This document shows positions 2,691 through 31,168 of a stretch of DNA of 32,000 nucleotides, in pieces. Every line of letters begins with the position of its first letter. The first letter of the stretch is position 1. The position numbers and the translations under genes were made by a program. The notes beneath the pieces were generated by a model, which was given only the letters and a program-made list of their open reading frames with translations, was not told where the DNA came from and ran no database searches. The stretch is from an uncultured Chloroflexia bacterium (lineage in GTDB: Bacteria; Chloroflexota; Anaerolineae; Anaerolineales; Anaerolineaceae), in contig OY969938.1 of the NCBI GenBank assembly GCA_963704755.1, forward strand, positions 2,190,001 through 2,222,000, given 5' to 3'.

Positions 2691-4128
2691 CCGTAGCCCG
2701 GCTTTCAAAGCCGGGAATGAGCTTGGCCGGCGCTGCCGACCGAACCGGTAGCAGCTAAAGCTGCACCTACAGGTACACAAAGACCCACCTGCGTGGGTCT
2801 CTATTCCGGCCCTGGCCGGCTCCATAACCAGAAATTTGTTTGGCCAGCGGTTCCTCGGGTTGGAAACCCGGGCTTTCTAAAGCAAGTTTCAATCAGGCGT
2901 TGAAGAGCGGGCTCGGTTCGGTCTGGAGACCGGCCCGATCGGCTGCCCGTAGCCCGGCTTTCAAAGCCGGGAATGAGCTTGGCCGTCCCTCCCTCGGGTT
3001 GGAAACCCGAGCTACCCTAGCGAAACGCTCCGGCTGGGCAGGCGTTTGCTTACCAAAGTGGATTCCTGTCAGGCATTGAAGAGCGGGCTCGGTCTGGAGA
3101 CTGGCCCGATCGGCTGCCCGTAGCCCGGCTTTCAAAGCCTGGAATGAGCTTGGCCGTCCCTCCCCTCGGGTTGGGAACCCGAGCTGCCTTACCGAAACGC
3201 TCCGGCTGGGCAGGCGTTTGCTTACCAAAGTAGATTCTCGTCAGGCGTTGAAGAGCGGGCTCGGTTTGGAGACTGGCCCGATCGGCTGCCCGTAGCCCGG
3301 CTTTCAAAGCCTGGAATGAGCTTGGCCGTCCCTCCCCTCGGGTTAGAAACCCGAGCTACCCTAGCGAAACGCTCCGGCTGGGCAGACGTTTGCTTACCAA
3401 AGTAGATTCCCGTCGGGCGTTGAAGAGCGGGCTCGGTCTGGAGACCGGCCCGATCGGCTGCCCGTAGCCCGGCTTTCAAAGCCGGGAATGAGCTTGGCCG
3501 GCCCTCCCCTCGGGTTGGAAACCCGAGCTACCCTAGCGAAACGCTCCGGCTGGGCAGGCGTTTGCTTACCAAAGTAGATTCCCGTCGGGCGTTGAAGAGC
3601 GGGCTCGGTCTGGAGACCGGCCCGATCGTCTGCCCGTAGCCCGGCTTTCAAAGCCGGGAATGAGCTTGGCCGGCCCTCCCCTCGGGTTGGAAACCCGAGC
3701 TACCCTAGCGAAACGCTCCGGCTGGGTAGGCGTTTGCTTACCAAAGTGGATTCCTGTCAGGCGTTGAAGAGCGGGCTCGGTCTGGAGACCGGCCCGATCG
3801 GCTGCCTGTAGCCCGGCTTTCAAAGCCGGGAATAAGCTTGGCCGGTGCTGCCGACCGAACCGGTAGCAGCTAAAGCTGCACCTACAGGTACACAAAGACC
3901 CACCTGCGTGGGTCTCCATTCCGGCCCTGGCCGGCTCCATAATCAGGAATTTGTTTGGCCAGCGGTTCCTCGGGTTGGAAACCCGGGCTTTCTAAAGCAA
4001 GTTTCAATCAGGCGTTGAAGAGCGGGCTCGGTCTGGAGACTGGCCCGATCGGCTGCCCGTAGCCCGGCTTTCAAAGCCGGGAATGAGCTTGGCCGGCCCT
4101 CCCCTCGGGTTGGAAACCCGAGCTACCA
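2691..4128. repeat. Tandem array of composite hairpin repeats: five 171-172-bp units flanked by two roughly 255-bp long-variant units and a terminal partial unit
   Basis: Unit starts (cccgtagcccgg) at 2691, 2946, 3117, 3289, 3461, 3633, 3805 and 4057. Each unit chains hairpins: cccggctttcaaagccggg; ctcgggtt-gga-aacccgag; aaacgc..gcgttt; cgggctcggtc-tgga-gaccggcccg. The long variants (2691-2945, 3805-4056) add agacccac-ctgc-gtgggtct and gctgc..gcagc hairpins. Confidence 0.9.
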
Positions 4129-7561: not shown

Positions 7562-9451
7562 ATGTCGGTTGAAAACCCGATGCTCCAGGAAGCAATCAGT
7601 GCCATAGGACAGGGAGACCGGGCCCACGCCCGTGACCTGCTCACGCGCATGCTGCGCAACGACAAGGACAACCCGGACTGCTGGCTGTGGATGAGCGCTG
7701 TGGTGGAAACGCCTAAAGAGCGCATCTACTGCCTGAAGGAAGTACTGCGCATCGACCCGGAAAACCAGGTTGCCCGGCGCGGGCTGACTCTGTTCGGGGC
7801 CGCCCCGCTGGATAAAAGCCTGATCGTTCCGGCCAACCTTCAGCACCGCAGTTGGCAGGTCAAGATCGAAAAGTCGACTGAACCCCGTCCGCCAGTCTCC
7901 TGGCGGCGAGTGAGCATGTACGGGCTGGCCGGGGTGATGGTCATTGTCCTGTTTGCGGTCGGTATTTTCGGGACCCGGCTGGTCCGCCAACACCAGAGCG
8001 ATAATTTGCCCACCATCTCCTACCGGCCGCTCGACAGCGCCACACCGGTATCGGCCCTGGCCGAAAGGGTCAGCGATACCCCCACTTTGCTGGCACCTAC
8101 CGCACCCTGGGATGCACTTCAAGCCACCTACACACCCACGCCTGCCTACGGGCGTACCCCACACCCGGTGATCGAGGCCTATTCGATCGGCCTGCGTGCG
8201 TACGACCGAGGCGATTGGGCCACTGCCATTCCTTACTTCCAACAAGTGATCAACTCAGATCCCAACGCGGCAGACATGTATTACCTGATGGGCGAGGCCT
8301 ACCGCGTCGAGGGCAACGACAGCCAGGCCGTCTCGGCTTATAACTCCGCCCTGCACGTCAACAGTGATTACGCGCCGGCCTACCTGGGGTTGGTCCGCGC
8401 CGGCATGGACGATGGCAGCCTGGCTCCCTCCGACGCTTACAAGGATTTACAAACCGCCATCCAGCTCGACCCCGACCTGGCCGAGGCTTACCTGGAAATG
8501 GCTTCCCTGGACCTGAATGCGGCCCGGTACGACGATGCCGCCAACGACCTGTCCAAAGCCGCCGACCTGCTGCCGAATTCACCACTGGTGTATCTGTACC
8601 GTGCCCAATTGGAACTGGCCCAGCAGGAATACAACCAGGCCGTGACCGACGCCACCCGGGCCAACCAGTTGGATGTCACCCTGCTGCCGGCCTACCTGGA
8701 CCTGGGGCAGGCGCTCCAGGGTGCCGGCCAGATGGCCGCATCCATTGTGCCTCTGGAGATCTACACCCGCTACATCGACCCGCCCAGCCTGACCGCGCTC
8801 ATCAGCCTGGGCCAGGCCTACGCCGCTGCCGGCAACAACGATTCCGCACTGGCTGCCTTTAGCCAGGCCTTGGAGATCAACCCGCAAAATTTCGACGCCC
8901 TGATGCAGCGCGGCGCGCTGTATTTGCGGACCGGCCAGGCGCAGGAAGCCCTGGCGGATTTTGAAGATGCCCTGGCCCTGCAAAAAGATTCCTTCGATGC
9001 CGCCATGGCCCGCGCGCAGGCCTTGTTGGACCTGGACGAATATGGGGATGCCTACGTCCAGTTGAACAAAGCCGAAGGCGGCGCTAAAACAAACGAGCAA
9101 AAAGCCGAACTGTATTATTACCGCGCCCAATCGCTGGAAACACTCAACGCCTCGGCGTCGATCAACGACTGGGAACGCCTGCTGAGCCTGCCACCCGGAA
9201 CAGCCTCGCAAAGCTGGCTGGCCCAGGCCGAAGCCCATATCCAGGCTTTATATACCCCCACGGTAACCAGCTCGCCCAGTCGAACCCCCACGATCACCCC
9301 CACGCCGGTGCCCTCCCGCACGCCCACGGTAACCCGTACCGTGGCAGCCTCCCGTACGGCTACTGCCACGCGCACGCTCGTGCCCAGCGCAACCAATACC
9401 CTGCCTTCGGCCACGCGCACCCCGCTCGCCAGCCCCACCCGGACCCCTTGA
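7562..9451 (+). CDS. Membrane-anchored tetratricopeptide-repeat (TPR) protein with Pro/Thr-rich C-terminal tail
   Basis: 629-aa ORF with one TM segment (VSMYGLAGVMVIVLFAVGIFG). Many TPR-like A/Y/L repeats (YYLMGEAYR, AYLGLVRA, AYLEMASL and others). The last roughly 65 aa are TPT/SRTPT low complexity. Confidence 0.85.
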   Translation: MSVENPMLQEAISAIGQGDRAHARDLLTRMLRNDKDNPDCWLWMSAVVETPKERIYCLKEVLRIDPENQVARRGLTLFGAAPLDKSLIVPANLQHRSWQVKIEKSTEPRPPVSWRRVSMYGLAGVMVIVLFAVGIFGTRLVRQHQSDNLPTISYRPLDSATPVSALAERVSDTPTLLAPTAPWDALQATYTPTPAYGRTPHPVIEAYSIGLRAYDRGDWATAIPYFQQVINSDPNAADMYYLMGEAYRVEGNDSQAVSAYNSALHVNSDYAPAYLGLVRAGMDDGSLAPSDAYKDLQTAIQLDPDLAEAYLEMASLDLNAARYDDAANDLSKAADLLPNSPLVYLYRAQLELAQQEYNQAVTDATRANQLDVTLLPAYLDLGQALQGAGQMAASIVPLEIYTRYIDPPSLTALISLGQAYAAAGNNDSALAAFSQALEINPQNFDALMQRGALYLRTGQAQEALADFEDALALQKDSFDAAMARAQALLDLDEYGDAYVQLNKAEGGAKTNEQKAELYYYRAQSLETLNASASINDWERLLSLPPGTASQSWLAQAEAHIQALYTPTVTSSPSRTPTITPTPVPSRTPTVTRTVAASRTATATRTLVPSATNTLPSATRTPLASPTRTP

Positions 9452-12496: not shown

Positions 12497-13715
12497 GCCA
12501 AAAAGGAGCCCCACGCAGGTGGGGCTTTGTGTATTTGTAGGTGCAGCTTGAGCTACCACCGGTCCTGGTAAACGACGCCGGTCTCGCTACACCCCCCCCG
12601 GCTTTGAAAGCCGGGCTACAAAAGCCGGGCTACGGCTCGTAGGTTGGGTTGCGGGCTCCCTTATAAAATTTGCCATTTTCCAGGCCTTGCCCGAACCCAA
12701 CATCCTGGTGAAAGATGTTGGGGTGAGCTTGGCCGTAGGCGATGGAGCTATTGGTGATATCCGCTCAACCCAACCTACGTGGATTGCCCAACCGGGTAAG
12801 AGTATTTCTCCAGCTTGCCGGGCAAAATTTCGGCTATGGAATCAGGCAATGCCAAAAAGGAGCCCCACGCAGGTGGGGCTTTGTGTATTCGTAGGTGCAG
12901 CTTTAGCTGCCACCGGTCCTGGTAAACGACGCCGGTCTCGCTACCCCCCCCCCGGCTTCGAAAGCCGGGCTACAAAAGCCGGGCTACAGCTCGTAGGTTG
13001 GGTTGCGGGCTCCCTTATAAAATTTGCCATTATCCAGGCCCTGCCCTTCCAGGCCTTGCCCGCAAACCCAACATCCTGGTGAAAGATGTTGGGTTGAGCT
13101 TGGCCGTAGGCGATGGAGCCATTGGTGATATCCGCTCAACCCAACCTACGTGGATTGCCCAACCGGGTAAGGGTATTTCTCCAGCTTACCGGGCAAAATT
13201 TCGGCTATGGAATCAGGCAATGCCAAAAAGGAGCCCCACGCAGGTGGGGCTTTGTGTATTCGTAGGTGCAGCTTTAGCTGCCACCGGTCCTGGTAAACGA
13301 CGCCGGTCTCGCTACCCCCCGGCTTCGAAAGCCGGGCTACAAAAGCCGGGCTACGGCTCGTAGGTTGGGTTGCGGGCTCCCTTATAAAATTTGCCATTTT
13401 CCAGGCCCTGCCCTTCCAGGCCTTGCCCGCAAACCCAACATCCTGGTAAAAGATGTTGGGTTGAGCTTGGCCGTAGGCGATTGAGGCATTGGTGATATCC
13501 GCTCAACCCAACCTACGTGGATTGCCCTACCGGGTAAGAGTATTTCTCCAGCTTGCCGGGCAAAATTTCGGCTATGGAATCAGGCAATGCCAAAAAAGGA
13601 GCCCCACGCAGGTGGGGCTTCGTGTATTCGTAGGTGCAGCTTGAGCTGCCACAGGTCCTGGTAAACGACGCCGGTCTCGCTACCCCCCCCCGGCTTCGAA
13701 AGCCGGGCTGCGGGC
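12497..13715. repeat. Tandem array of about 354-371-bp composite repeats (3 full units plus a partial fourth)
   Basis: Unit starts (gccaaaaaggagccccacgcagg) at 12497, 12851, 13222 and 13589. Units contain hairpins agccccac-gcag-gtggggct, cccggcttcgaaagccggg and cccaacatcctggtgaaagatgttggg. They also share about 35 nt (cagctaaagctgcacctac..acacaaag) in inverted orientation with the long units of the 2691-4128 array. Confidence 0.9.
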
Positions 13716-17530: not shown

Positions 17531-17905
17531 CACGGAGGCACGGAGTTCACGGAGAAGAATTTTTGGAATGAGGCCCAGGTTAACAAGCAATCCTTTTAAT
17601 TTCACTTGATTTGTGCATGCAAAGAATCAAGAGTTTTAACCACGGAGACACAGAGTAACGGAGGCACGGAGTTCACGGAGAAGAATTTTTGGAATGAGGC
17701 CCAGGTTAACAAGCAATCCTTTTAATTTCACTTGATTTGTGCATGCAAAGAATCAAGAGTTTTAACCACGGAGACACAGAGTACACGGAGAAGTATTTTA
17801 ATATAGGGCTCAAGTAAACAAGCAATCCTATTGATTCTCCTGGTTTATGCAGGCAAAGGATGCGGAGATTTTAACCACGGAGGCACGAAGGGCACGGAGA
17901 AGAAC
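17531..17905. repeat. Direct repeats (two identical 125-nt copies, period 126, plus degenerate copies) carrying fossil GxxExxY gene 3-prime ends
   Basis: 17531-17655 and 17657-17781 are identical, and a diverged third copy follows. On the minus strand each unit encodes ...EIKRIAC-stop. This resembles the real gene end ...GIKRIVC-stop at 17920. Confidence 0.85.
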
Positions 17906-20705: not shown

Positions 20706-21443
20706 TCACCCGCCGTTCAAAGCCGCATTGATCGCCTTGGAAATGTCATCGAAGGAGGGGATGTAGTTGGGGCCGGCGCTGCTGACAACCATCTTGCCAT
20801 CCACAAAAATACCGGGAGTGGGCGGCACACCCAGGGCATCACCCGCCGTGACGTCTTTTTGAATCTCAGCGGCATAGGTGTCGGCCGCGAAGCACTTATT
20901 GAAATCGGTCATGTTCAGGCCAATATCCTGGGCAAAGGCGGTCAAACGGTCTTTGGTGTACGAACCGGCATTCTCGCCCAGCCAGTTGGCGAAAGCGATC
21001 GCGTGGAAGTCCCAGAACTTACCCTGCGCTGCCGCGCACATGGCCGCGTTGGCCGCATCGTGCGATTCGCCCTGGCCGCCATCGATGAAGGGATAGAAAT
21101 GGAAGGTGTAATAAACCTTACCGGTATCTACAAAGGTCTGGATGACCTGTGGCTCGAGGCTACGCGAATAGGATAAACAGCCTGAGCATTGAAAATCTTC
21201 CCAAACGTCCATTTTGACCGTCGCATTCGGATCCCCGACACTGGTCTGGTTGACCGGTACAGCGAAAGAAGGCGGTGTGATCTGGACGATCGAACTGGTA
21301 TCCGGACTGGCCGGCTTTTAACTCGTCACAATCAGCACCACTGCGAGCGCTATGGCGACGACCGCCACAGAAAAGATAACGATGAGCCGGTTGCGGCTCT
21401 TTTGTTTTTGAACACGTTTGCGATATTCCTGACGTTTGCTCAT
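20706..21443 (-). pseudogene. Membrane-anchored DsbA-family thiol:disulfide oxidoreductase interrupted by one in-frame TAA
   Basis: The ATG at 21443 encodes MSKRQEYRKRVQKQKSRNRLIVIFSVAVVAIALAVVLIVTS (TM anchor). A TAA follows at 21318-21320. The same frame then continues KPASPDTSSIVQITPPSFAVPVNQTSVGDPNATVKMDVWEDFQCSGC... through the thioredoxin-fold ORF 20706-21212 (CSGC active site). An extended -10 (TGTATAAT; the TATAAT hexamer is the complement of 21491-21496) lies upstream. Confidence 0.7.
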
Positions 21444-21747: not shown

Positions 21748-23049
21748 CTATGATGAGGGGGTCTCCGACTGGGCCGGCTCGGGGGTGTTGCTGGCCAAAT
21801 CGGGGGAAGTGGGGGTCGGCTGCGGACTGGTCGGCGTGGGCGGCGGGCTGGTTGGGGCCACGGTCTCGGTTGGTGCCGCGGTCCAGGCCGGCGGCGTGGG
21901 AGTCGCTACGCTAAAGGTGGCCGTCGCTGCGCCTTCCTGGGTAGCGGTGGGCGTGCGCGTGCCGGTGGGAGGTGCTGTGGGCGTGGCGGGATGATCCCCC
22001 GGCAGAGTCAACATCACCCGGATATCCGGCCCGTACGGACAGGGGCTGCTGCCCGGGCAGGATGGGCTGCCGGGCTGCCAGCCGGTGTAGTTATCGATCC
22101 GCACCTGTACCTGCACCAGGTAGTGCTGGTCGCTTTGGGGAGTGAAAGTCAGGTCGAAGTAGTTGGTCATAACGTCTCCGGCCGGCATGGGCGAAGCGCT
22201 CGACCAATTCCAGGCGCTCGAGACGGCTTGCAGCGGCTGTCCGTTGCTGTCGGCGCTGAAGACCTGGCCTGTCAGGGTCAGTCCTTCGGCCGGCAGAACG
22301 CCGGAATTGAGCAGTTGCAAGTGGCTGGACACGTCCATATCCTGCCCGTTCGGGCCGACCGTGGCGTCTAGCAGTGCCTTGATTTCGGCCCCAGGGATGA
22401 GCGGCGCCGTTGGCGTGGCCAATGACAGGGTCGGCAGCAGGCTCGGGCTGTTGGCATCCAAAACGAATTCCGCTTGCGCGGCGGCGTCGGAATCGCAGGA
22501 GCCCTCGCTGCTGCAATCCGCCGACAAAACCCCAACGGCGGGTACCGCATTGCTGATGCTCACCTGGGCAATGTTGCGATAGCGGGTCACGCCGGCCCGC
22601 GGATTAAAGTCGAATTCGTAAGGGTAGCAGCGCATTCCGCCCGGATCGACCTGCTGATCGGGATTAATGATCTTGCTGGCCCCATCCAATGGTGTGTACA
22701 GGCCGCTCTCGTCCAGGTATTCCACCTGGTCGAGAATATTCAGGCTGCGGGTGCCAAATTCGCCGGTGTTGTGGACGCAAATTTCACCGCGGACCACGGC
22801 CGGCAAATTTTCCGACGCCATCCCGTTGCCTGTTTTCCAATAAGCCATGACCGATTTTTGGGCCTCGATGGTGGTATTGCCCCCGGCATTGGAGCTGTCA
22901 AGCTGGCCGGTGCTCACCTGGCCAGAAGTACCCAACATATGGGCCCACCAGGTATTCGCCACCGGGATCGAGATCAAAGCCACGCCAATCACCACAGCCG
23001 CCACGGCCACGTGCAGATAATGCGTTTGCAAGAAATTCTTCAGGTTCAC
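21748..23049 (-). CDS. Cluster A large secreted protein with SipW-type-like signal motif and Pro/Thr-rich tail (paralog of 26191-27546)
   Basis: The GTG at 23049 overlaps the peptidase stop (GTGA). N-terminal h-region then PVANTWWAHMLGTSGQVSTG. Blocks shared with the paralog: GEICV.NTG, LNILDQ.EYLD.SG.Y.PLDGASK, RYRNIAQVSI.N, VRIDNYTGW.PG.P.CPGS.PCP.GPD.R. The last roughly 85 aa are P/T/A-rich. Confidence 0.8.
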   Translation of the reverse strand: MNLKNFLQTHYLHVAVAAVVIGVALISIPVANTWWAHMLGTSGQVSTGQLDSSNAGGNTTIEAQKSVMAYWKTGNGMASENLPAVVRGEICVHNTGEFGTRSLNILDQVEYLDESGLYTPLDGASKIINPDQQVDPGGMRCYPYEFDFNPRAGVTRYRNIAQVSISNAVPAVGVLSADCSSEGSCDSDAAAQAEFVLDANSPSLLPTLSLATPTAPLIPGAEIKALLDATVGPNGQDMDVSSHLQLLNSGVLPAEGLTLTGQVFSADSNGQPLQAVSSAWNWSSASPMPAGDVMTNYFDLTFTPQSDQHYLVQVQVRIDNYTGWQPGSPSCPGSSPCPYGPDIRVMLTLPGDHPATPTAPPTGTRTPTATQEGAATATFSVATPTPPAWTAAPTETVAPTSPPPTPTSPQPTPTSPDLASNTPEPAQSETPSS

Positions 23050-24269
23050 CGCGCTCCTCGCAACCAATCCAGGAACCAGCGGAAGAGAATACTCACCCAG
23101 CCAATCTTGGGAATCTTCAGGATAACCTTGCCCTCGTATGCAGATGCCGGCACAGGCTCGTCTTCAACGTTGTTGTTATCACCACGGGTGATGAAAGTAA
23201 GCTGCCCGTTGTCATTATAGATCTGCTCGACCCGGTGGACGATTAAATCGCCATCCCGCTGGTAACGGATGATATCGCCGACCTTGACACTGGTCACCGC
23301 CACGTTGCTGGTGACCACCACATCGCCGGCATAGAGAGTTGGATTCATGCTGACCCCGCTCATCAAGAAGGGCCGCACACCGAACAGGCCGGTGTTGAAC
23401 CAGAGCAAAATAATCGCAAATACCGCGACGATGATCCAACCCAGCCAGCTCCCCTGACCGGCCGCCGGTTTTTGATTCGCTGCCGCTGGTTTCGTTTTCG
23501 GGTCGGCAGCCGGCGCGATCCAGATATTCAGGAGCGGGATGGCCAGGGCGGGGATAACCGTCTTGACGAATGCCGTCACCACCCAGGGCAGTTGCGGCAG
23601 GACGGGCGGCAGCCACTCACTTGCCGCCAGGGTAACCCGGTAAATAATAGCCGGCCAGGGCCCTACGGTAAGCACCATAAAAGTGGCCAGCATTTGTTCG
23701 GCCAGGGTGGGCAGGCCGTATTTTCCAACGAATTGGAAAAGACCTGCGACACTACTCACTGACCCAAATTGATTAGCCGGTAAAGCCAGTAAGGTAAAAG
23801 AGAATGAAAACAGGATGAGGGCTAAAAAAGCGTGGCCCTTCCCAAAACATTGTACCAGGAAGGCACGCGTGAATTCAAATGCCAGAATTGGGGTAACCGC
23901 ATAAATCAAATTGCCCAACAAGACCCAGCCGCTGTGGCTGTAGGGCGAGTGGCCGAAGCCATAGATGGCCCCGGCGCCCATCACCGCCAGGCTTTGGACC
24001 AACCCGATCAAAAAGGCGATCAGCAAAAAGCCGGCCTGGACGGTCTGCTTTCCGGCCAGGTAGGTCCAGATGAAGTAAGAAAGCCCGGCCAGCAGCAGCC
24101 ATAAGGCCGGCTGAATGAGATACAGGTCCCAATCAGATGGAAAAACGCCGGGCAGGGCGAAATTAACCAGCACATACACCACCACCAGCTCTAAAACGGC
24201 CAGGATCCACAGCCAGTTGAGCTTCTGGGATCCTGGATGAGGCACAACTCGATTCTCATTCCCAAGCAT
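23046..24269 (-). CDS. Cluster A ER/archaeal-type (SipW-like) signal peptidase I fused to an N-terminal polytopic membrane domain
   Basis: ATG at 24269 with GGAGGA 6 nt upstream. The C-terminal roughly 150 aa carry SGVSMNPTLYAGDVV, IVHRV and TRGDNNNVEDEP (Ser/His S26B-type motifs). The N-terminal roughly 250 aa have about 7 TM helices with a conserved GFGHSPY motif. Confidence 0.85.
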   Translation of the reverse strand: MLGNENRVVPHPGSQKLNWLWILAVLELVVVYVLVNFALPGVFPSDWDLYLIQPALWLLLAGLSYFIWTYLAGKQTVQAGFLLIAFLIGLVQSLAVMGAGAIYGFGHSPYSHSGWVLLGNLIYAVTPILAFEFTRAFLVQCFGKGHAFLALILFSFSFTLLALPANQFGSVSSVAGLFQFVGKYGLPTLAEQMLATFMVLTVGPWPAIIYRVTLAASEWLPPVLPQLPWVVTAFVKTVIPALAIPLLNIWIAPAADPKTKPAAANQKPAAGQGSWLGWIIVAVFAIILLWFNTGLFGVRPFLMSGVSMNPTLYAGDVVVTSNVAVTSVKVGDIIRYQRDGDLIVHRVEQIYNDNGQLTFITRGDNNNVEDEPVPASAYEGKVILKIPKIGWVSILFRWFLDWLRGAR

Positions 24270-24284
24270 TAATATCCTCCCGTT

Positions 24285-24311
24285 GTGGAGGGGGGCCGGG
24301 CTCCCCTCCAC
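24285..24311 (-). promoter_or_regulatory. 9-bp GC hairpin in the gap between the small-protein genes and the peptidase gene (cluster A)
   Basis: gtggagggg-(9 nt)-cccctccac lies directly upstream of the peptidase RBS. There is no U-run. Confidence 0.4.
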
Positions 24312-24325
24312 AGGCTGTTACAGGA

Positions 24326-24937
24326 TCAAGGTGAGGTCAGGGTAGTCAGACAACTTGCATAGTCCATCGGATGGTTCCATTGACTCAGGCAGGAATGCAC
24401 CGAAAACTGGTAATCCGTCAATTCTAGCGCGCCATCGTTGACCTGGACAACCATCTGGCTGCTGGATCCGTCTTGGGGGACGAATTCGCCATGGACGTTG
24501 TCCTTGAAGGTGACGGTGAGCTCGTTGCAGGCAATCGATTTGGTCCCAGTTGTGGGTGAACCTGTTACGGTGCAGCCGGTCAGGTTCCCGGCCGAAATCC
24601 CGTTTCCATTGACGACCCAGGGCAGCGTCCCGGTATTCAGGAAGTCAAAAGTACACTTCACCGAATAGCCGGGGTAGCCGTTGACGATGTTGAAGTGGAT
24701 GGTCGAATGATCCGCCGAGTCAATCGTTACAACCGTTGAACCGATGTCTTGCCCTTCCGGCTCCGTTTCGGTACAGGAATAGCCCGTCCAACTGGCGTCG
24801 AGATTGCCGGTCTGGACGACGCCGCTGACCTGCAACTGGTCGGTCCAGAAGCCATAGGCCAGGCCCATGCCGCCCAGGGTGGCCAGGAGGATCAGCGCTG
24901 CGGTGCCCATTAACCAGTGTGTGGATCGGTTCAACAT
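24326..24937 (-). CDS. Cluster A TasA/camelysin-like small secreted protein 2 (Cys-rich)
   Basis: ATG at 24937 with GAGGAA RBS. Signal region ...LATLGGMGLAYGFWTDQLQVSGVVQTGNLDASW. Core VNGYPGYSVKCTFDFLNTGTLP. Six Cys. Orthologous-looking to the frameshifted 29504-30065. Confidence 0.8.
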   Translation of the reverse strand: MLNRSTHWLMGTAALILLATLGGMGLAYGFWTDQLQVSGVVQTGNLDASWTGYSCTETEPEGQDIGSTVVTIDSADHSTIHFNIVNGYPGYSVKCTFDFLNTGTLPWVVNGNGISAGNLTGCTVTGSPTTGTKSIACNELTVTFKDNVHGEFVPQDGSSSQMVVQVNDGALELTDYQFSVHSCLSQWNHPMDYASCLTTLTSP

Positions 24938-25001
24938 GATGTTCCTCAATTCTTCTTCAAGGTTTTTATGATTCCCTGAAACAAGATCGAATCTGAAGGA
25001 A

Positions 25002-25550
25002 TTACGGGTTAACCTGTACGAAGGTCAGGGTGATGGTTCCAGAATACGATGCCCCTTCGGCTGCAGTGGCCGTTGGAGTAAGGGTGATCTCGCCGGTGAC
25101 CGATGCACCATCTTCAATGACGTCCACATTAGGAGCAGTGAAACCGGGCGCTTCAAAATCAAGGGCGGCCTTGCTTGCCAGGTCCGTCGGGTCAAATACA
25201 ACACTTGACAATTTAACAGGGATGGTGCCATTATTTGCGATGGTGCCGGTCAAGGTGCACGTGTAGCCGGGATAGGCATTCTCGATCAAAACCTCGACGC
25301 GGTCGGAATCATTCGCCTCCGGATCACTGGACTGATCTACAATATTTGCCGAGCAAGTACCGACCTCCTCCATGCCGGCAGTCTCGTTGTCAGTAGCTGT
25401 GACCTCGGTGAAATGGACATTCAACGTCCCGGTTGATGCAGTTCCATGGATCTCAAGGGAATCCGTCCAGGCCCCGTAGGCGATGGCCATGGTGGCCAGC
25501 ACAAACAGCGCCAGCACCGTGATCAACAGAGTTTGCTTTTTTGAAAACAT
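25002..25550 (-). CDS. Cluster A TasA/camelysin-like small secreted protein 1
   Basis: ATG at 25550 with GGAGGA RBS. MFSKKQTLLITVLALFVLATMAIAYGAWTDSLEIHGTASTGTLNVHF. Core ENAYPGYTCTLTGTIANNGTIPVK. Motif spacing matches B. subtilis TasA as I recall it (AAFND..ASGTLDL; LKPGD....FENNGSL). Confidence 0.8.
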   Translation of the reverse strand: MFSKKQTLLITVLALFVLATMAIAYGAWTDSLEIHGTASTGTLNVHFTEVTATDNETAGMEEVGTCSANIVDQSSDPEANDSDRVEVLIENAYPGYTCTLTGTIANNGTIPVKLSSVVFDPTDLASKAALDFEAPGFTAPNVDVIEDGASVTGEITLTPTATAAEGASYSGTITLTFVQVNP

Positions 25551-26003
25551 GATTTAATCCTCCAAAAAAATCTTGTAAAACAGATTGGAGGGTGGCATAA
25601 TCACAGTAGTGTAGGGTGAGTGATTACGCCACCCATGCTAGGGGCCCTGGCAACCTCAATTTGCCGGGGCCTGTTTTTTAATGGTCGGCCCTATCGAAAC
25701 GGATGGATCCCTCCTTTCACCCGCTGCTCTTCCAACTCAGATCCCTCCGAGGAAGAAACACGGATCGAAAACCTCCACTCCCCGGCGGGCCTGATCTGTT
25801 GTGCGCCGTTATGTTGGCCACGCGTTGTATTTTTCTGTGTTATCAGCCGGGATTTCGATTCTGGCCGGTTCTGTTTTTTCGCAAGGCGTTAAAACAAAAA
25901 ACCAGCCACTTTCGTGGCCGGTTTCGCCATTTGCTCTGCGCGAGGTAATTCCCTTATGGAAAGGCGATCCCCCGTTTCCCCCGCGCTTCATCGCATCCAC
26001 GTA
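25551..26003 (-). promoter_or_regulatory. Long (about 453-nt) 5-prime leader of cluster A with conserved structured ends
   Basis: The 5-prime roughly 110 nt (25891-26003) and the 3-prime roughly 120 nt (25551-25675) are near-identical to the cluster B leader, while the middle is diverged. The 3-prime end holds a 15-bp hairpin (25590-25604 / 25620-25634) and an anti-SD CCCTCCAA (complement of 25585-25592) able to pair with the SD (complement of 25558-25565). Confidence 0.6.
25891..26003 (-). ncRNA. Candidate structured RNA element (riboswitch-like leader or small RNA) ending in an intrinsic terminator
   Basis: It starts just downstream of the promoter. Helix GCGCGGGG (complement of 25979-25986) pairs with CCUCGCGC (complement of 25938-25945), and one base pair covaries in the cluster B copy. 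An internal UUCC-loop-GGAA hairpin is present. It ends in CCGGCCAC-GAAA-GUGGCUGG plus U6 (25891-25921). Confidence 0.5.
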
Positions 26004-26010
26004 TAAATTT

Positions 26011-26038
26011 ATTATAGGTATAGATCGCGATTTGTCAA
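26011..26038 (-). promoter_or_regulatory. Near-consensus sigma70 promoter of cluster A
   Basis: On the minus strand: TTGACA (26038-26033), 16-nt spacer, TATAAT (26016-26011). Confidence 0.65.
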
Positions 26039-26190: not shown

Positions 26191-27546
26191 CTAGCCGGCC
26201 GGTGTGGCCGTCGGCGGGGGCGTCGCTGGGGTAGCGCTTGCCGGCGCCGGTGCAGTCGGCGTGGGCAGCGGATCGGTCGGCGCGGGTGTATCCGTCGGGG
26301 CAGGCGTAGGGTCAGCCGCAGTTGGGCTGGGTGTGACTGGGATATCCGTGGCCGCCTCAGCGGTCGCTGTGGGGCAGACAGTGGTCGCATCCGCGGTCGC
26401 GGTGGGGCTGTCCGCCGGTTGCGGAGGGGTCGGGGTTTCGGCCGGTCCGGCCGGCGTAGGAGCGAGCGTATCCGTCTGGCCGGGCTCCGACGTGGCCGTG
26501 GGAGTTGGGGTCGCCTCTCCCGGCAGGACCAACGCAATGCGCACGTCCGGTCCATTGGGGCAGGGGTCACTGCCCGGGCAGGCCGGGTCGCCCGGCAGCC
26601 AGCCGGTGTAATTGTCGATGCGCACCTGGGCCTGCAACAGGTAATGCTGGCCGGGTTGAGGGCTAAAGTGGATGAGGAAGTAATTATCCAGGGTATCGCC
26701 CGCGTTCAAAGGCGAATCGCTCGACCATTCCCAGGGTTCCGAGACGGCCTGGTCCGGCTTGCCATCCGCACCCGCGCTGAACAGTTGGGCCTTCACCGCC
26801 AAGCCTTCGGCCGGCAGTACGCCGGTATTGTGCAGTTGCAAGTGCCCGGACACATCCAGCCCATCCGCAACCGGGTCGATGTCGGCTTCCAGTTGAGCTT
26901 CGATCTCGGCCGCCGGTACGGAGGTACCCGTAAGGGCTGGGGCGGTGGGAGTCGGCAGCGGGCTCGGGGCAGCCAGCTCGAAATCTGCCTGGGCCATGGC
27001 TCCGTAGGCGCATTCGCCCGCGCTGCCGCAGTCGGCCGACTCGATGCCGGCGGTGGCGTGGTTGCGGATGCTCACCTGGGCGATATTGCGGTACTGTCTT
27101 ATGCTCTCCGGGGGGCGAAATTCGAACTCATACGGGAAGCAGGTTTGCTGGCCGGCCTTGACTTGCTGATCCGGTTGGATATTTTTGCTGGCGCCATCCA
27201 GGGGGACGTATTGGCCGCTCCCGTCCAGGTATTCGAGCTGGTCGAGAATGTTTAATCCCTGGGTGGCATACTTGCCGGTATTGCTGACACAAATTTCTCC
27301 GCTGACCACCGCTGTTCCGGTTTCAGCCGTCCCGTCGGCGCCGGCTTTCCAATGCGCCTTGGCGGATTTTTGCGCCTGAATGGAGGTATTGCCCTGTTGC
27401 GACCAATCGCCGGAAGCCGCACTACCGGTGACCCCCAGTATCTCGGTCCAAAACGCATTCCCGATCGGCAGGGTCACTAACGCGCCTGCGGCCAAAACTA
27501 TCATGGCCAGGATATTCAGCATCCTCTGGCGAATGAACTTTTTCAC
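26191..27546 (-). CDS. Cluster B large secreted protein with SipW-type-like signal motif and Pro/Thr-rich tail
   Basis: The GTG at 27546 overlaps the peptidase stop (GTGA), as in cluster A. N-terminal LPIGNAFWTEILGVTGSAASG. It shares the conserved blocks listed for 21748-23049. The last roughly 110 aa are P/T/A-rich. Confidence 0.8.
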   Translation of the reverse strand: MKKFIRQRMLNILAMIVLAAGALVTLPIGNAFWTEILGVTGSAASGDWSQQGNTSIQAQKSAKAHWKAGADGTAETGTAVVSGEICVSNTGKYATQGLNILDQLEYLDGSGQYVPLDGASKNIQPDQQVKAGQQTCFPYEFEFRPPESIRQYRNIAQVSIRNHATAGIESADCGSAGECAYGAMAQADFELAAPSPLPTPTAPALTGTSVPAAEIEAQLEADIDPVADGLDVSGHLQLHNTGVLPAEGLAVKAQLFSAGADGKPDQAVSEPWEWSSDSPLNAGDTLDNYFLIHFSPQPGQHYLLQAQVRIDNYTGWLPGDPACPGSDPCPNGPDVRIALVLPGEATPTPTATSEPGQTDTLAPTPAGPAETPTPPQPADSPTATADATTVCPTATAEAATDIPVTPSPTAADPTPAPTDTPAPTDPLPTPTAPAPASATPATPPPTATPAG

Positions 27547-28805
27547 AGCAGGCTCCCTACCCACCCCAGCGCCTGGCGCAGGTAAATACTCACCCAGCCA
27601 ATTTTCGGAAGGATCAAAATCACTTTCCCTTCGTACCGGCTGGCCGGGAAGGGATCATCATCGACGTTGTTGTTATCCCCGCGGGTAGTAAAGACGATCT
27701 GCCCGCCCTCGTTTTGAATGGCGACCACCCGGTGGACCACATCGATCGTATCCCGCCGAAAGCGGATGATATCCCCTACCTGGATGGTTGCGGGCGCCAC
27801 CTGGTCGGTGACCACCACGTCGCCGGTGTAAAGGGTGGGGTTCATGCTCGGCCCGCTCATCAGCGAGGGACGAACCCCTAGAAAGCCGGTATTCAACCAG
27901 ATCAAGAGAACCGCGAAAATGCCGGTCAAAATCCAGGCCAGCGGTGAGGCCGGTTCGTTCGCCTTTTTCTTTTTGGCGGCCAGCTTTTCAGCCGGCTTTT
28001 CAACCGGTTTTTCGGCCGGCGTTTCAGCCGCCGGGTCCGGGCGGTTCAAGACCAGCATGCCCAGGACCGGCACCACCACCCCGACCAAGGCCGCGGCCAT
28101 CCAGGGCAAATCCGGCAAGATGGGCGAGAGCCATTCGAAGGCCTGCAACACTCCCCGGTAGGCGATGCTGGCCAATGGGCCGCCCTCGATCACCAGGGAG
28201 GCCGCCAGCATCAATTCGGCCATCGCCGGGAGCAGGGTTTGCCCGGTGACGCTAAAAGCCGTACTTACCTGGCTTAACTGGGCGTACTGGCCCACCGGGA
28301 TCATCAGCGCCAGGGGCAGCAGCCAGGCCAGCAGGAAACCCCAGGGTTGGCTGCTCTTCCCCACCGATTTGCCCAGGTACCAGCGTCCCATCTCGATGCC
28401 GATCAAGCGGGTGCTGAAGAACCACAGGTTGAGCGCCACCATGGTCGCCTGGCGCGCATAGGGCGAATGTCCAAAACCGAGCAGCAGCCCCAGGATCACG
28501 CCAACCGCTAGTTGAATACCGCCCAGCATAAAACCGGTCAGGACTACGTTCCCCTGGATCAGTTTTAGCCCGGAACGGCCATCGACCTTCGTCAGGCCGA
28601 GCGCCAGCAGGGCCAGGGATATCCACACGATCGGCTGGAGGATGTATAAACTGAGGTCCGCCTGAACCACCGCCGGGAAAGCAAAATTAACCAGGACGAA
28701 TACCAGCCCCATCCAGGCCACCAGGATGAGCCAACCAAAACGCTGCAGCGCCGGTTGAATTTCTTCCAGGAAATGATTTGCCTGCCCCGACTTGATTTTG
28801 TCCAT
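27543..28805 (-). CDS. Cluster B SipW-like signal peptidase I fused to an N-terminal polytopic membrane domain
   Basis: ATG at 28805 with GAGGTG 6 nt upstream. SGPSMNPTLYTGDVVV, VVHRV and TRGDNNNVDDDP. N-terminal roughly 7-TM domain with GFGHSPY. A Lys/Pro/Ala-rich linker precedes the peptidase anchor helix. Confidence 0.85.
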   Translation of the reverse strand: MDKIKSGQANHFLEEIQPALQRFGWLILVAWMGLVFVLVNFAFPAVVQADLSLYILQPIVWISLALLALGLTKVDGRSGLKLIQGNVVLTGFMLGGIQLAVGVILGLLLGFGHSPYARQATMVALNLWFFSTRLIGIEMGRWYLGKSVGKSSQPWGFLLAWLLPLALMIPVGQYAQLSQVSTAFSVTGQTLLPAMAELMLAASLVIEGGPLASIAYRGVLQAFEWLSPILPDLPWMAAALVGVVVPVLGMLVLNRPDPAAETPAEKPVEKPAEKLAAKKKKANEPASPLAWILTGIFAVLLIWLNTGFLGVRPSLMSGPSMNPTLYTGDVVVTDQVAPATIQVGDIIRFRRDTIDVVHRVVAIQNEGGQIVFTTRGDNNNVDDDPFPASRYEGKVILILPKIGWVSIYLRQALGWVGSLL

Positions 28806-28844
28806 TAAATCCACCTCGTATTTTGAATCAACGTTCGCTTGGAA

Positions 28845-28874
28845 TAAAAAAGAAAAAGGCGAAGTCTTTCCGCC
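28845..28874 (-). terminator. Terminator/attenuator between the small-protein genes and the peptidase gene (cluster B)
   Basis: On the minus strand: GGCGGAA-agac-TTCGCC followed by TTTTTCTTTTTTATT. Confidence 0.5.
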
Positions 28875-28886
28875 GGATTTACTTTG

Positions 28887-29447
28887 TTAATGTCTCTTGC
28901 TATTTTTTTGTTCCAGTTTCACCTGGATCGAGAAGGGCAAGTCGATTTTCTCTTTGACCTGGGCTCCCAGGGTCAGGGTCACATGGATTTTCGACCAGCA
29001 CGAAGACGGCAATCGGGAAGGATTCTTGCCCCAGGCGGGGGTAGAACCACAGGGCTGGATGACCTTACCCTGCATCCCTGGACCCTCGACCGCCGTAAGG
29101 ATCAGATCGTGCGGACTACGGTTGATCAGGTTAATTTGATCCACGCCAATCGGAAATTGGCCGGTATTGGCAAAATAAAGGTCGCACTGCAACTGGTAGC
29201 CCGGGTAGGCATTTTCGACCTGGATTCCCAGCGATTTGGCCCCCTGCCTGGAAGAAACCAGCCCCACATCCCAACTGGCCAGCGTGCCGGGCTGGGAAAT
29301 CGAACAAGTCCGGTAAAACCAGACCGCATCGCCCCGGCCCGGATCCAAATTTATACAGGCGTCGGCGGGCTGTGTTTTGAACAGGGTGAGCCCCACGGCG
29401 AGCAGAATAACGATCACAGACAGAAGCGGCAAGAATTTTATGTGCAT
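28887..29447 (-). CDS. Cluster B divergent small protein with the NAYPGY core but no AYGxW signal motif
   Basis: 186 aa. N-terminal anchor MHIKFLPLLSVIVILLAVGLTLF. Core ENAYPGYQLQCDLYFANTGQFPIGV. No obvious SD. No counterpart in cluster A. Confidence 0.65.
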   Translation of the reverse strand: MHIKFLPLLSVIVILLAVGLTLFKTQPADACINLDPGRGDAVWFYRTCSISQPGTLASWDVGLVSSRQGAKSLGIQVENAYPGYQLQCDLYFANTGQFPIGVDQINLINRSPHDLILTAVEGPGMQGKVIQPCGSTPAWGKNPSRLPSSCWSKIHVTLTLGAQVKEKIDLPFSIQVKLEQKNSKRH

Positions 29448-29470
29448 TTTCGGTAAATGGAATAAGCTCG

Positions 29471-29499
29471 AAAAAGGGGGTAATTCCTTACCCCCTTTT
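29471..29499. terminator. Hairpin with flanking A/T runs after the frameshifted paralog
   Basis: aaaaa-gggggtaa-ttcc-ttaccccc-tttt. It can act on either strand. Confidence 0.5.
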
Positions 29500-29503
29500 C
29501 AAA

Positions 29504-30065
29504 TTACCGGCAACTGCTCGCATTCGCTTGCTCGAAGGTGTAATGAATGGCAAAGGTGTAAGAAGCGTTTGTTTCAGCCTGGTCCAATACGGTGACCCGC
29601 ATGTTAGAGCCTTCACTGCCGCCCGGGTTGAATTTGGTGCACAACCCATCTGTCCAAACGACCTTAAGCTGGTCGCAGGTGGCGGTGAAAGTGCCGGTGG
29701 ACATGTCCTCCGGATCGACGACACAACCGGTCAGGTTGCCCTGGTTGAAATCGATATCGTCCAGGTAGACAGGGATCGTCCCGCCAACCTTGAAGTCGGC
29801 TAAGCAGTAGCCCAGGTAGCCGGGATAGGCATTATCTACCGTGACCTGAATGGTGTGCGGATCGGTCTGGCTGCTGCTGATCGTCGCGTATGGCTCGTTA
29901 TCCCCGCAGAAATGATCGATCCAGGCCGCATCGACTTCGCCGGTGGTGACTGTGCCCTGAACAGACAGCGAATTCGGCCCATACGCCATAGGCGACCCCC
30001 AATGTCAGCAGAACCACAACTAACACCAGAGCGGATATCGTTGCCATGCTTTTTGAAATTCTCAT
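29504..30065 (-). pseudogene. Cluster B TasA/camelysin-like small protein 2, disrupted by a 1-nt frameshift
   Basis: The ATG at 30065 (AAGGAG RBS) encodes MRISKSMATISALVLVVVLLTLGVAYGVWAE. The mature part SLSVQGTVTTGEVDAAW...DNAYPGYLGYCLADFKVGGTIP continues in another frame (ORF 29504-29989). The span is 562 nt, i.e. 3n+1. The shift maps to 29969-29972. Confidence 0.7.
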
Positions 30066-30080
30066 ATCCGGCTCCTTGGT

Positions 30081-30114
30081 GAAAAGATCGGGGAGGCAGG
30101 TATCCACCTCCCCG
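30081..30114 (-). terminator. Terminator/attenuator after the first small-protein gene (cluster B)
   Basis: On the minus strand: CGGGGAGG-(10 nt)-CCTCCCCG followed by ATCTTTTC. Confidence 0.5.
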
Positions 30115-30139
30115 GTCTTTCCTTTATCGTGTCAAACTA

Positions 30140-30673
30140 CTACGGAACAGCCTGCTCGGCCAGCAAAGTGTAGGTGAAGCTGTAACTTTCGTCCATGTGG
30201 CCGGTTTCGGTCGCCGGGATGGTGAAGTTCCAATAAATCCCGCCGCCATAAGTTGCAGCAGCTAAAACGTAATTGCCGCTGGTGCTGATCTGGTTGCCCT
30301 TGGCGTCGGTCAAATACATGGAGAAGAATGGAATTGTGTCCGAAGATGTTTTGACCAATCCGTGGACCTTGGCCGGGATGGAGCTCAAATTATCGATCGC
30401 CGATCCGCCTTCGCAGAAATATCCAGGGTAGCCATTGGAAATGGTGACGGTAATGTCATGGCCGTCTTCCGATAATTGGGCCGCACAGGTCGCCACGCCC
30501 TGGGCATCATCATCGTACCAAAGCGGCATGAATTTGACATCGAAACTGCCGGTGTGGACCGTACCGCCGACGGTGAGGGTCTGTGACCAGGCACCGTAGG
30601 TCAGTCCGAGGGAGGCCAGGCCGATCAGCAGCACAAAGGCCAGGGTGATATGTAAAGTTTTCTTGGAAAACAT
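30140..30673 (-). CDS. Cluster B TasA/camelysin-like small secreted protein 1
   Basis: Trimmed to the ATG at 30673 (GGAGGA RBS). MFSKKTLHITLAFVLLIGLASLGLTYGAWSQTLTVGGTVHTGSFDVKF. Core SNGYPGYFCEGGSAIDNLSSIP. The ORF-track N-terminal extension runs into the leader. Confidence 0.8.
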   Translation of the reverse strand: MFSKKTLHITLAFVLLIGLASLGLTYGAWSQTLTVGGTVHTGSFDVKFMPLWYDDDAQGVATCAAQLSEDGHDITVTISNGYPGYFCEGGSAIDNLSSIPAKVHGLVKTSSDTIPFFSMYLTDAKGNQISTSGNYVLAAATYGGGIYWNFTIPATETGHMDESYSFTYTLLAEQAVP

Positions 30674-31134
30674 GATTAAATCCTCCAGAATAAATGTATT
30701 GTAAAAAGATTTGGAGGGTGGCATAATCACTACAGTGATGCGGTGATGCGATTGCGCCACCCATGTTACCGGCCCTGGCAACCTCAACTTGCCAGGGTCC
30801 CTTTTTTGTCGGCCAGCTTTCCAGTCGAGTAGATCTCCTCTCCTTCCCCGTGGTTCTTCCAGCGCGAACTACTCCGTGGGAGGTACCCGGATTGAACTCC
30901 GCGCTACCAGGCGTGGAAAATGACCCGATCCACACCGGTAGTTTGGCTGTTTGTGCAATTTTGCTTATTTCCGTGCTGAGAGTTTCTGCTCTGGCCGGTT
31001 TTTTCGCTTCGATGCGATTAAAATAAAAAACCAGCCACTTTCGTGGCCGGTTTCGCCATTTGCTCTGTGCGAGGTAATTCCTCTTCGGAAAGGCGATCCC
31101 CCATGTCCCCCGCACTTCATCGCATCCACGTTAT
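30674..31134 (-). promoter_or_regulatory. Long (about 461-nt) 5-prime leader of cluster B, including the second copy of the structured element (31021-31134)
   Basis: Same conserved ends as the cluster A leader. Terminator hairpin 31031-31050 plus U-run 31021-30. Helix GUGCGGGG (complement of 31108-31115) pairs with CCUCGCAC (complement of 31067-31074). Anti-SD CCCTCCAAA faces SD CTGGAGGA. Confidence 0.6.
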
Positions 31135-31140
31135 GAAATC

Positions 31141-31168
31141 ATTATATAAGATTTATTGAAATTGTCAA
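31141..31168 (-). promoter_or_regulatory. Near-consensus sigma70 promoter of cluster B
   Basis: On the minus strand: TTGACA (31168-31163), 16-nt spacer, TATAAT (31146-31141). It sits in a roughly 250-bp AT-rich divergent region. Confidence 0.65.

Follow-up and report, generated by a model that had tools for sequence, protein, structure and literature searches.

Two adjacent paralogous operons in a 32,000-nucleotide (nt) stretch of DNA from an uncultured Chloroflexia bacterium (contig OY969938.1, positions 2,190,001 to 2,222,000; here called the window) are preceded by long leaders, each of which can probably be considered a composite regulatory region with three layers: a riboswitch of the clan known from class II aptamers for c-di-GMP (cyclic diguanosine monophosphate), a predicted convergent antisense RNA and an orphan Shine-Dalgarno (SD)-like box. 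Both leaders lie on the minus strand, copy A at 25551-26038 and copy B at 30674-31168. The riboswitch itself belongs to a known kind and can be found by standard Rfam annotation; of greater interest are the GAA form of its aptamer, the fibre-operon context in Chloroflexota and the conserved, predicted antisense unit that faces it.

The promoters of operon A (26011-26038) and operon B (31141-31168), both on the minus strand, are TTGACA-16-TATAAT arrangements that match the consensus at 12/12 positions; the initial annotation of this DNA had described them as near-consensus. From the predicted start site (near 26004 in A and 31134 in B) to the ATG the leaders extend for ~454 nt (A, ATG at 25550) and ~461 nt (B, ATG at 30673), in agreement with the ~455 nt estimated earlier. 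The SD sequence of gene 1A, GGAGGA, occupies 25558-25563 on the minus strand, ahead of the ATG at 25550-25548.

When the two copies were aligned pairwise and identity was counted per segment, the first ~110 nt, comprising the aptamer and terminator, were found to be 91% identical, and the last ~140 nt of the leader, referred to below as the 3' block, 80% identical. The corresponding values are 63% for the mid-leader, 56-64% for the coding DNA of the three paralogous gene pairs (30-48% at the protein level) and 52% for the 100 nt located 5' of the -35 element. This puts figures on the earlier observation that the leader ends are conserved above the coding regions and the middle has diverged. 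The low identity of the coding DNA and the mid-leader indicates that the duplication is old, and the two conserved blocks are islands within it, not a conversion tract. Gene conversion extending into the genes, which the initial annotation had considered as another source of the conservation, is ruled out by this profile: conservation stops short of the genes and no tract reaches coding sequence. The adjacent, tandem arrangement of the paralogous operons would suit the view that the blocks are remnants of a recent duplication or of gene conversion, functionless beyond the riboswitch; this view is nonetheless highly improbable, given the age of the duplication, the exact match of the blocks to predicted functional elements and the recurrence of these elements in other genera.

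The aptamer at the 5' end of the leaders

The 5' element is almost certainly an aptamer of the class II clan, CL00127. When the whole window was scanned against Rfam with the gathering scores as cut-offs, a check proposed in the initial annotation, exactly two matches were returned, one per leader and both to RF03169 (c-di-GMP-II-GAG; gathering score 40 bits): aptamer A at 25907-26007 with 49.4 bits and aptamer B at 31036-31136 with 46.5 bits, both on the minus strand. The canonical c-di-GMP-II model, RF01786, aligns over its full length (positions 1-84) at relaxed thresholds, with E values of 2e-9 for A and 6e-9 for B. It weighs against a plain canonical assignment that both copies miss the gathering score of this model, with 47.8 (A) and 46.1 (B) bits vs 53.5 bits. 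The core had earlier been likened to that of c-di-GMP-I (GEMM-I); this resemblance did not hold, as class I models gave no match on either leader at E values up to 10 and the fold is that of class II. A tandem arrangement of aptamer and group I ribozyme, as in Clostridioides difficile, was also considered and rejected, the rest of the leader containing neither a ribozyme nor any other Rfam family.

The three helices P1-P2-P3 are present, and P2 is separated from P3 by an internal loop that is GA-rich (k-turn-like). In aptamer A, P1 is formed by CGUGG/CCACG, P2 by UGC/GCA and P3 by GCGCGGGG/CCUCGCGC, and the pairing UCGCC/GGCGA joins the P3 loop with the 3' single strand. Several elements of the initial annotation find their place in this fold: its covarying helix is P3, its UCGCC/GGCGA pairing is the class II pseudoknot, and its UUCC/GGAA inner hairpin, confirmed in both copies, is an insertion in the P3 loop, where relatives have other small hairpins. 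Among the metagenome matches listed, L095, L096, L117 and L152 have P3-loop insertions of 60-70 nt (related loci are referred to by L numbers).

The compensatory C-G to U-A change described for this helix is real. By pairwise alignment P3 reads GCGCGGGG/CCUCGCGC in A vs GUGCGGGG/CCUCGCAC in B, and at the position where they differ a set of 37 related aptamers has C-G 16 times and U-A 15 times. The set was drawn from homologous loci in genomes and from a pattern scan of metagenomes, P3 playing no part in the selection. P3 is 86.5% paired in this set vs 60 +/- 2% when the 3' strands are shuffled among the sequences, and several pair types occur at every P3 position. The pseudoknot also covaries: it is UCGCC/GGCGA in both window copies and in L006, L007 and L010, and UCACC/GGUGA in L004 and most of the metagenome relatives listed. 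Covariation in further homologues, to which the initial annotation had looked for support, is thus found for both P3 and the pseudoknot.

With the canonical family (RF01786, structure 3Q3Z) the window aptamers have in common the P1-P2-P3 fold, the GA-rich internal loop, the pseudoknot that links the P3 loop to the 3' strand, and the AACCG pocket strand. They differ from it in their scores below the gathering threshold, in carrying GAA in place of the canonical GCA (C68 to A), in the extra small hairpin of the P3 loop, in ~340 nt more leader beyond the terminator, and in their host, a member of the Chloroflexota (Anaerolineae-like) and not of the Clostridia.

Predicted switch logic and ligand

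The GAAA-capped hairpin with a U6 run, in which the initial annotation had seen an intrinsic terminator, is confirmed in both leaders by a consensus scan and by folds. On the minus strand it occupies 25892-25925 in copy A, as AACCGGCCAC-GAAA-GUGGCUGGUU followed by the U-run, and 31021-31054 in copy B; the stem has 11 pairs in the fold and 12 in the consensus scan, where G-T is allowed. The 5' arm of the terminator, AACCGGCCAC, consists of the ACCGG pocket strand of the aptamer and the 3' strand of P1 (CCACG), and this double use of one strand is the reason why a transcriptional ON switch is predicted. Folded on its own, the 112-nt RNA loses P1 and reaches -42.4 (A) and -41.7 (B) kcal/mol in a structure made up of P2, P3 and the 11-bp terminator; with the 3' arm of the terminator masked, P1 (CGUGG/CCACG), P2 and P3 form at -27.0 (A) and -26.3 (B) kcal/mol. 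The same layout, ACCGRC...GYCGGU(U)n, is also present in relatives. On this anatomy, which can be seen directly in the sequence, the 5' element probably acts as a transcriptional ON switch. Class II switches of C. difficile are likewise transcriptional ON switches and control pili and adhesins (PMC11477304); the window switches resemble the Cdi2 switches, which precede type IV pilus and adhesin genes, both in their predicted terminator-based ON logic and in having surface-fibre or adhesion genes as targets.

In the mechanism proposed here, a strong constitutive promoter would transcribe a c-di-GMP-II-type aptamer. Without ligand, the ACCGG and CCACG strand would pair with GUGGCUGGUU to give the 11-bp terminator, and with the U-run transcription would stop after ~110 nt; with ligand, the pseudoknotted aptamer would hold this 3' strand, the terminator would be blocked and RNA polymerase would read on. 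The ligand would have to capture the strand during transcription, with termination as the default state. As the promoter is a perfect consensus, control should be exerted mainly at the termination step, and a terminated RNA of ~110 nt is predicted to be abundant at low ligand. A terminated species of this length had already been envisaged in the initial annotation and would be expected in the OFF state; the riboswitch or attenuator that it placed ahead of both operons would be a class II-clan aptamer combined with an intrinsic-terminator platform.

The ligand is most likely c-di-GMP, as the initial annotation suggested, a prediction drawn from the pocket nucleotides and from the inputs of related operons. 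The family names can be read as the triplet before ACCG (GCA, GAG, GCG), and on that reading the window would represent a fourth form, GAA. The consensus line is GUGCAACCG for canonical class II and GGCGAGACCG for the GAG model; the window, like its Chloroflexota homologues, reads GGCGAAACCG. Thus, the window aptamers pass the gathering score of RF03169 and have the pseudoknot sequence GGUCGCC/GGCGA in common with it, but the GAG triplet of that model is absent: GAA stands in its place in the window and in each of the six Chloroflexota homologues. The ligand contacts in 3Q3Z include C68, A69, A70, C71, C72 and G73 (PMC7288161). The pocket strand of the window, A-A-A-C-C-G, keeps 5/6 of these, in a numbering transferred via the model consensus and not via the crystal sequence. 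On the same reading of the triplets, the named variants GAG and GCG alter A69, whereas the window RNA keeps it.

Two points speak against c-di-GMP: pocket position 68 is A in the window vs C in the solved structure, and a search of the literature found no documented ligand or binding data for RF03169 or for these variants. Taken with the pass on RF03169 and the miss on RF01786, and with the variant family (c-di-GMP-I-GGC) likewise carried by L002, they would favour an aptamer that senses another ligand, e.g., another cyclic dinucleotide. Such a change of ligand is unlikely, as the GAA form keeps A69, A70, C71, C72 and G73 of the solved c-di-GMP complex, and the C68 to A replacement appears to be matched by the U of the pseudoknot strand (GGUCGCC), in what would be a G-C to U-A swap. 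Additionally, one orthologous operon has a PilZ partner, and the regulated genes (fibres, PilT-type ATPase) are typical c-di-GMP targets.

The assignment of c-di-GMP and the biological logic that goes with it gain support from the presence, within a single operon family, of three different types of c-di-GMP input. Six homologous loci pass the gathering score of RF03169. In L004, L005, L006 (Thermanaerothrix), L007 (the cultured Bellilinea caldifistulae GOMI-1) and L010 the aptamer lies upstream of the operon; in L214 it lies downstream of the operon (8897-9002), at the contig end, so that operons under riboswitch control may stand in tandem there, just as they do in the window. L203 and L213 have divergent aptamers that resemble class II but score below the threshold. 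The second type of input is found in L002, a Chloroflexota metagenome-assembled genome (MAG), which carries a c-di-GMP-I-GGC aptamer (RF03167, 6889-6968, 72.8 bits), followed by an antisense unit, an SD-like box and, as the first gene, a PF12389 protein. The third is a PilZ-domain gene (138 aa, E 2e-8) at 3405-3821 of L202, directly upstream of a six-subunit operon that has no riboswitch. Related operons are thus wired to c-di-GMP in three ways, by a class II-type switch, a class I-type switch and a PilZ neighbour, and c-di-GMP riboswitch control would be extended to TasA/SipW-like fibre operons of Chloroflexota. The Anaerolineae-like host type comprises filamentous bacteria common in sludge and sediments.

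A metagenome pattern scan for GAA-type aptamers returned at least 120 stretches (loci L082-L201), most of which seem to be complete aptamers followed by terminators of the form ACCGRC...GYCGGU(U)n; class II aptamers of the GAAACCG type are abundant in soil and sediment metagenomes. Among the matches listed, the GAA-type aptamer of L112 precedes a Pfam-confirmed PilT-type ATPase, and L179 and L187 show N-termini that resemble a PilT-type ATPase by eye. In the same list, the aptamers of L116, L121 and L148 precede peptides that look Flp-pilin-like (by eye only), and those of L119, L140 and L171 precede proteins with signal ends of the AAFAYF(T/S) type. The GAA form of class II, common in the environment, is caught by RF03169 and missed by RF01786 and keeps the pocket adenines; this mismatch between form and model bears on how a ligand is assigned in annotation.

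The predicted antisense unit and the orphan SD-like box

The reading that suits the conserved 3' block best is that of a gene for a small antisense RNA, transcribed convergently. Its predicted promoter on the plus strand, found by a consensus scan, is TTGTAA, 17 nt, TGgCATAAT (extended -10) in both copies, at 25573-25601 (A) and 30699-30727 (B). The predicted antisense RNA of ~72 nt would span 25608-25681 on the plus strand in copy A (z-score -4.7) and 30734-30808 on the plus strand in copy B (z-score -3.6), the starts and ends being predictions. In RNA A a 5' hairpin is followed by a 12-bp terminator hairpin at 25642-25672 and then GTTTTTT; in RNA B the terminator stem at 30771-30799 is followed by the T-run CCTTTTTT. 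In both copies the terminator hairpin is GC-rich and lies ~40 nt past the plus-strand promoter. The conserved features of the block (-35, -10, U-run) can be understood only as antisense-strand elements; on the sense strand an A-run, without a role there, precedes the GC hairpin.

The same unit is present in the leaders of L006, L007 and L010, as TGCTATAAT, then a hairpin, then a terminator, and also in those of L005, L002, L203, L211/L212 and L214. In L209 its promoter is TTGACA-17-TATAAT. The leader of L213 contains two tandem units: at ~950-1250 the 3' half of the riboswitch terminator and the whole antisense unit are tandemly duplicated (~173 nt), which places two antisense promoters in one leader. 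In 7/8 units aligned on the antisense strand TTGnnn stands 17-18 nt from the -10 box, and the RNA bodies differ. All the predicted RNAs measure 68-75 nt (the one in L007 would run from ~8946 down to ~8873), and in each a short linker joins a 5' hairpin to a terminator hairpin followed by a U-run; the z-scores lie between -3.6 and -6.0, and the terminator stems vary but stay paired, e.g., CCCUUGCC/GGCAAGGG vs CCCUCACC/GGUGAGGG. In 7/8 cases the antisense strand gives a better fold than the complementary strand, by 1 to 12 kcal/mol, because a G-U pair turns into a C-A mismatch in the sense RNA.

A script that looks for a -10 box and a terminator 50-95 nt apart detected the unit in 5/5 GAA-aptamer-bearing leaders of this operon type and, among the matches listed, in none of 109 other aptamer-downstream regions. 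Run on the whole window (64 kb, both strands), it gave five sites, of which just the two in the leaders are accompanied by a -35 element. No Rfam family reached its gathering score in the 3' block or antisense unit of the window and 21 related loci, where the matches were at chance level only (e.g., sX12 at E 0.39).

Several points weigh against an antisense gene. In copy B there is no strand preference (+0.6 kcal/mol), the hairpins folding on both strands. The antisense RNAs of the window and Bellilinea types have a common architecture and little common sequence, so the homology of the units rests on their position and on the promoter alignment; the consensus of the RNAs was weak, the MAFFT registers differing between sequences, and single-sequence folds were used instead. 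Start sites as well as termination and antisense expression are predictions. Expression of the antisense RNA is, on balance, moderately likely.

The initial annotation had read the 3' block as an SD-sequestering element. Part of this stands: in both 3' blocks the fold of minimum energy joins CCUCCA to UGGAGG, the CCCUCCA anti-SD being located on the minus strand at 25586-25592 in A and 30718-30712 in B. The block would then be a sense-strand translational gate, in which the hairpin and CCCUCCA sequester the SD until released by temperature, a protein or the ribosome, and the promoter and terminator look-alikes on the opposite strand would be by-products. The 80% identity of the block between the paralogues and the equal folding of copy B on either strand are compatible with such a gate. 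It is improbable all the same, because no homologous leader has an equivalent of the anti-SD near its SD, because the anti-SD sits inside the 17-nt spacer of the antisense promoter, and because what the genera have in common is TTGnnn, 17-18 nt, TATAAT; the idle A-run and the better folding of the antisense strand in 7/8 cases count against it as well. The anti-SD may have a local translational effect in this genome, which would leave the conservation of the block unexplained.

The antisense unit appears to belong to the operon leader, with the riboswitch having joined it in some lineages, since units are also present in the leaders of L209, L211 and L214, in which no aptamer was detected. In the proposed mechanism, the read-through transcript would cross this small convergent unit, whose extended -10 promoter adjoins the ribosome-binding site, and the unit would most likely oppose or threshold leaky read-through, either because its RNA pairs with the leader or through promoter interference. 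That the antisense RNA does threshold read-through is put forward tentatively. An undescribed composite switch, in which a c-di-GMP ON riboswitch faces an antisense RNA of ~72 nt from a new family absent from Rfam and characteristic of leaders of fibre operons in Anaerolineae, is similarly a possible but not a probable reading; if true, leaky read-through would be cancelled and fibre output would be thresholded or bistable in c-di-GMP. Should the unit be expressed, it would provide a compact case of a riboswitch and an antisense RNA on one leader.

Among cis-encoded antisense small RNAs, a 5' hairpin combined with an intrinsic terminator is known from, e.g., plasmid copy-control RNAs and type I antitoxins. 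The predicted two-hairpin RNA of ~72 nt resembles them in being convergent on the 5' untranslated region of its target and fully complementary to it; it differs in that no toxin or leader open reading frame (ORF) lies opposite the unit (checked by eye) and in that the unit sits 3' of a riboswitch terminator within the same leader. In known pairings of the two kinds of element, such as that of AspocR in Listeria, a riboswitch controls the antisense RNA, whereas the riboswitch of the window faces a predicted one.

The third layer of the leaders is an orphan SD-like box, GAAAGGAGGG, at 25709-25718 on the minus strand of copy A, with no usable start codon after it; copy B has a weaker, degenerate box, GGAAGGAGAGGAG, at 30835-30847 on the minus strand. 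Such boxes are present in L002, L005, L006, L007, L010, L203 (two), L205, L209, L211, L213 and L214, in the homologous leaders 75-330 nt (mostly under 170 nt) 5' of the start codon, and boxes such as GAAAGGAGGUG match the 3' end of 16S rRNA better than genuine SDs do. In the leaders inspected no start codon follows the box at a usable spacing. A leader peptide or type I toxin behind the box was considered and rejected, ten leaders inspected by eye having no conserved start codon or ORF.

By analogy only, the GAAAGGAGG(G/U)G box may bind 30S subunits and stabilise the mRNA, as in the case of cry3A from Bacillus thuringiensis, whose STAB-SD binds a 30S subunit that blocks RNase J1 (PMC4113751). 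Similar to cry3A are the strong SD-like GAAAGGAGG in a long leader, its distance of 75-170 nt from the start codon that follows and the lack of an ORF behind it; the differences are that any leader processing or RNase J dependence would be hypothetical for the window leaders, and that the box of window copy B is degenerate. Moreover, the box stands 5' of the antisense unit in the window and L211 and 3' of it elsewhere, which counts against a common role; as the order differs between loci, no single processing or stabilisation model fits all. A STAB-SD-like role of the box is doubtful.

The regulated operons and other features of the window

Operon A (21748-25550, minus strand) encodes secreted proteins of 182 and 207 aa, a SipW-type fusion protein of 421 aa and a Pro/Thr-rich secreted protein of 439 aa; operon B (26191-30673, minus strand) encodes secreted proteins of 177, 161 and 186 aa, a SipW-type fusion protein of 423 aa and a Pro/Thr-rich protein of 457 aa. 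The small secreted proteins share the signal end A-Y-G-x-W-[ST]. The C-terminal third of the 421- and 423-aa proteins is a signal peptidase I of the SipW/archaeal type, matched by TIGR02228 with 83.2 and 81.4 bits (cut-off 51.85). Anaerolineae and other Chloroflexota contain the closest relatives of this protein; the fusion of a polytopic membrane part with a SipW-type peptidase is also found in Bathyarchaeia, Thermoproteota and other archaeal MAGs (L016-L025, L059), with 26-34% identity over nearly the full length.

The identity of the clusters as TasA-like fibre operons is likely. The subunits miss the threshold of PF12389 (TasA/camelysin), to which 1/14 aligned subunit sequences matches with E 0.12. 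Related clusters contain bona fide PF12389 genes, and a profile of the subunits compared with the PF12389 protein of L002 gave an hhalign E value of 4.7e-4 (probability 32%), in an alignment that spans the signal, GTLD and N-x-PG motifs. The AlphaFold model of gene 1 is a beta-sandwich (pLDDT 82), for which a Foldseek search of the PDB gave nothing at E <= 0.001, with a TasA fibre at rank 38. The output of the switch would be these two paralogous operons, with secreted, remotely TasA-like fibre subunits and their own SipW-type signal peptidase, and high c-di-GMP would switch on matrix or fibre production.

The matrix operon of Bacillus subtilis is tapA-sipW-tasA (PMC9245690). The window operons are similar to it in combining small secreted subunits with a dedicated SipW-type signal peptidase; they differ in that the peptidase is fused to a polytopic membrane domain of ~290 aa and in that the subunits stay below the PF12389 threshold, the hhalign match being the sole link. 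Furthermore, tasA of B. subtilis is under protein repressors, whereas the window operons are predicted to be under a riboswitch.

A GC-rich hairpin, CGGGGAGGTGGATACCTGCCTCCCCG, with a T-rich tail lies between genes 1B and 2B (30089-30114, minus strand) and could act as a transcriptional attenuator behind the first subunit gene; copy A is without a counterpart, no terminator having been found after gene 1A. Directly 3' of operon A, whose putative fibre subunits contain Cys, there is a DsbA/thioredoxin-like gene (20706-21212, minus strand), followed by gatC, gatA and gatB. The window also contains repeats outside the leaders: two of them are non-coding tandem repeats, at 12678-13709 (371 nt x 2.8 copies, within which the 14-nt motif AAAGCCGGGCTACA recurs) and at 17531-17904 (~126 nt x 2 copies), and the third is a tandem array at 2893-3844 with a unit of 172 nt in 5.5 copies (94% matches), carrying staggered 85-aa ORFs on the minus strand throughout.

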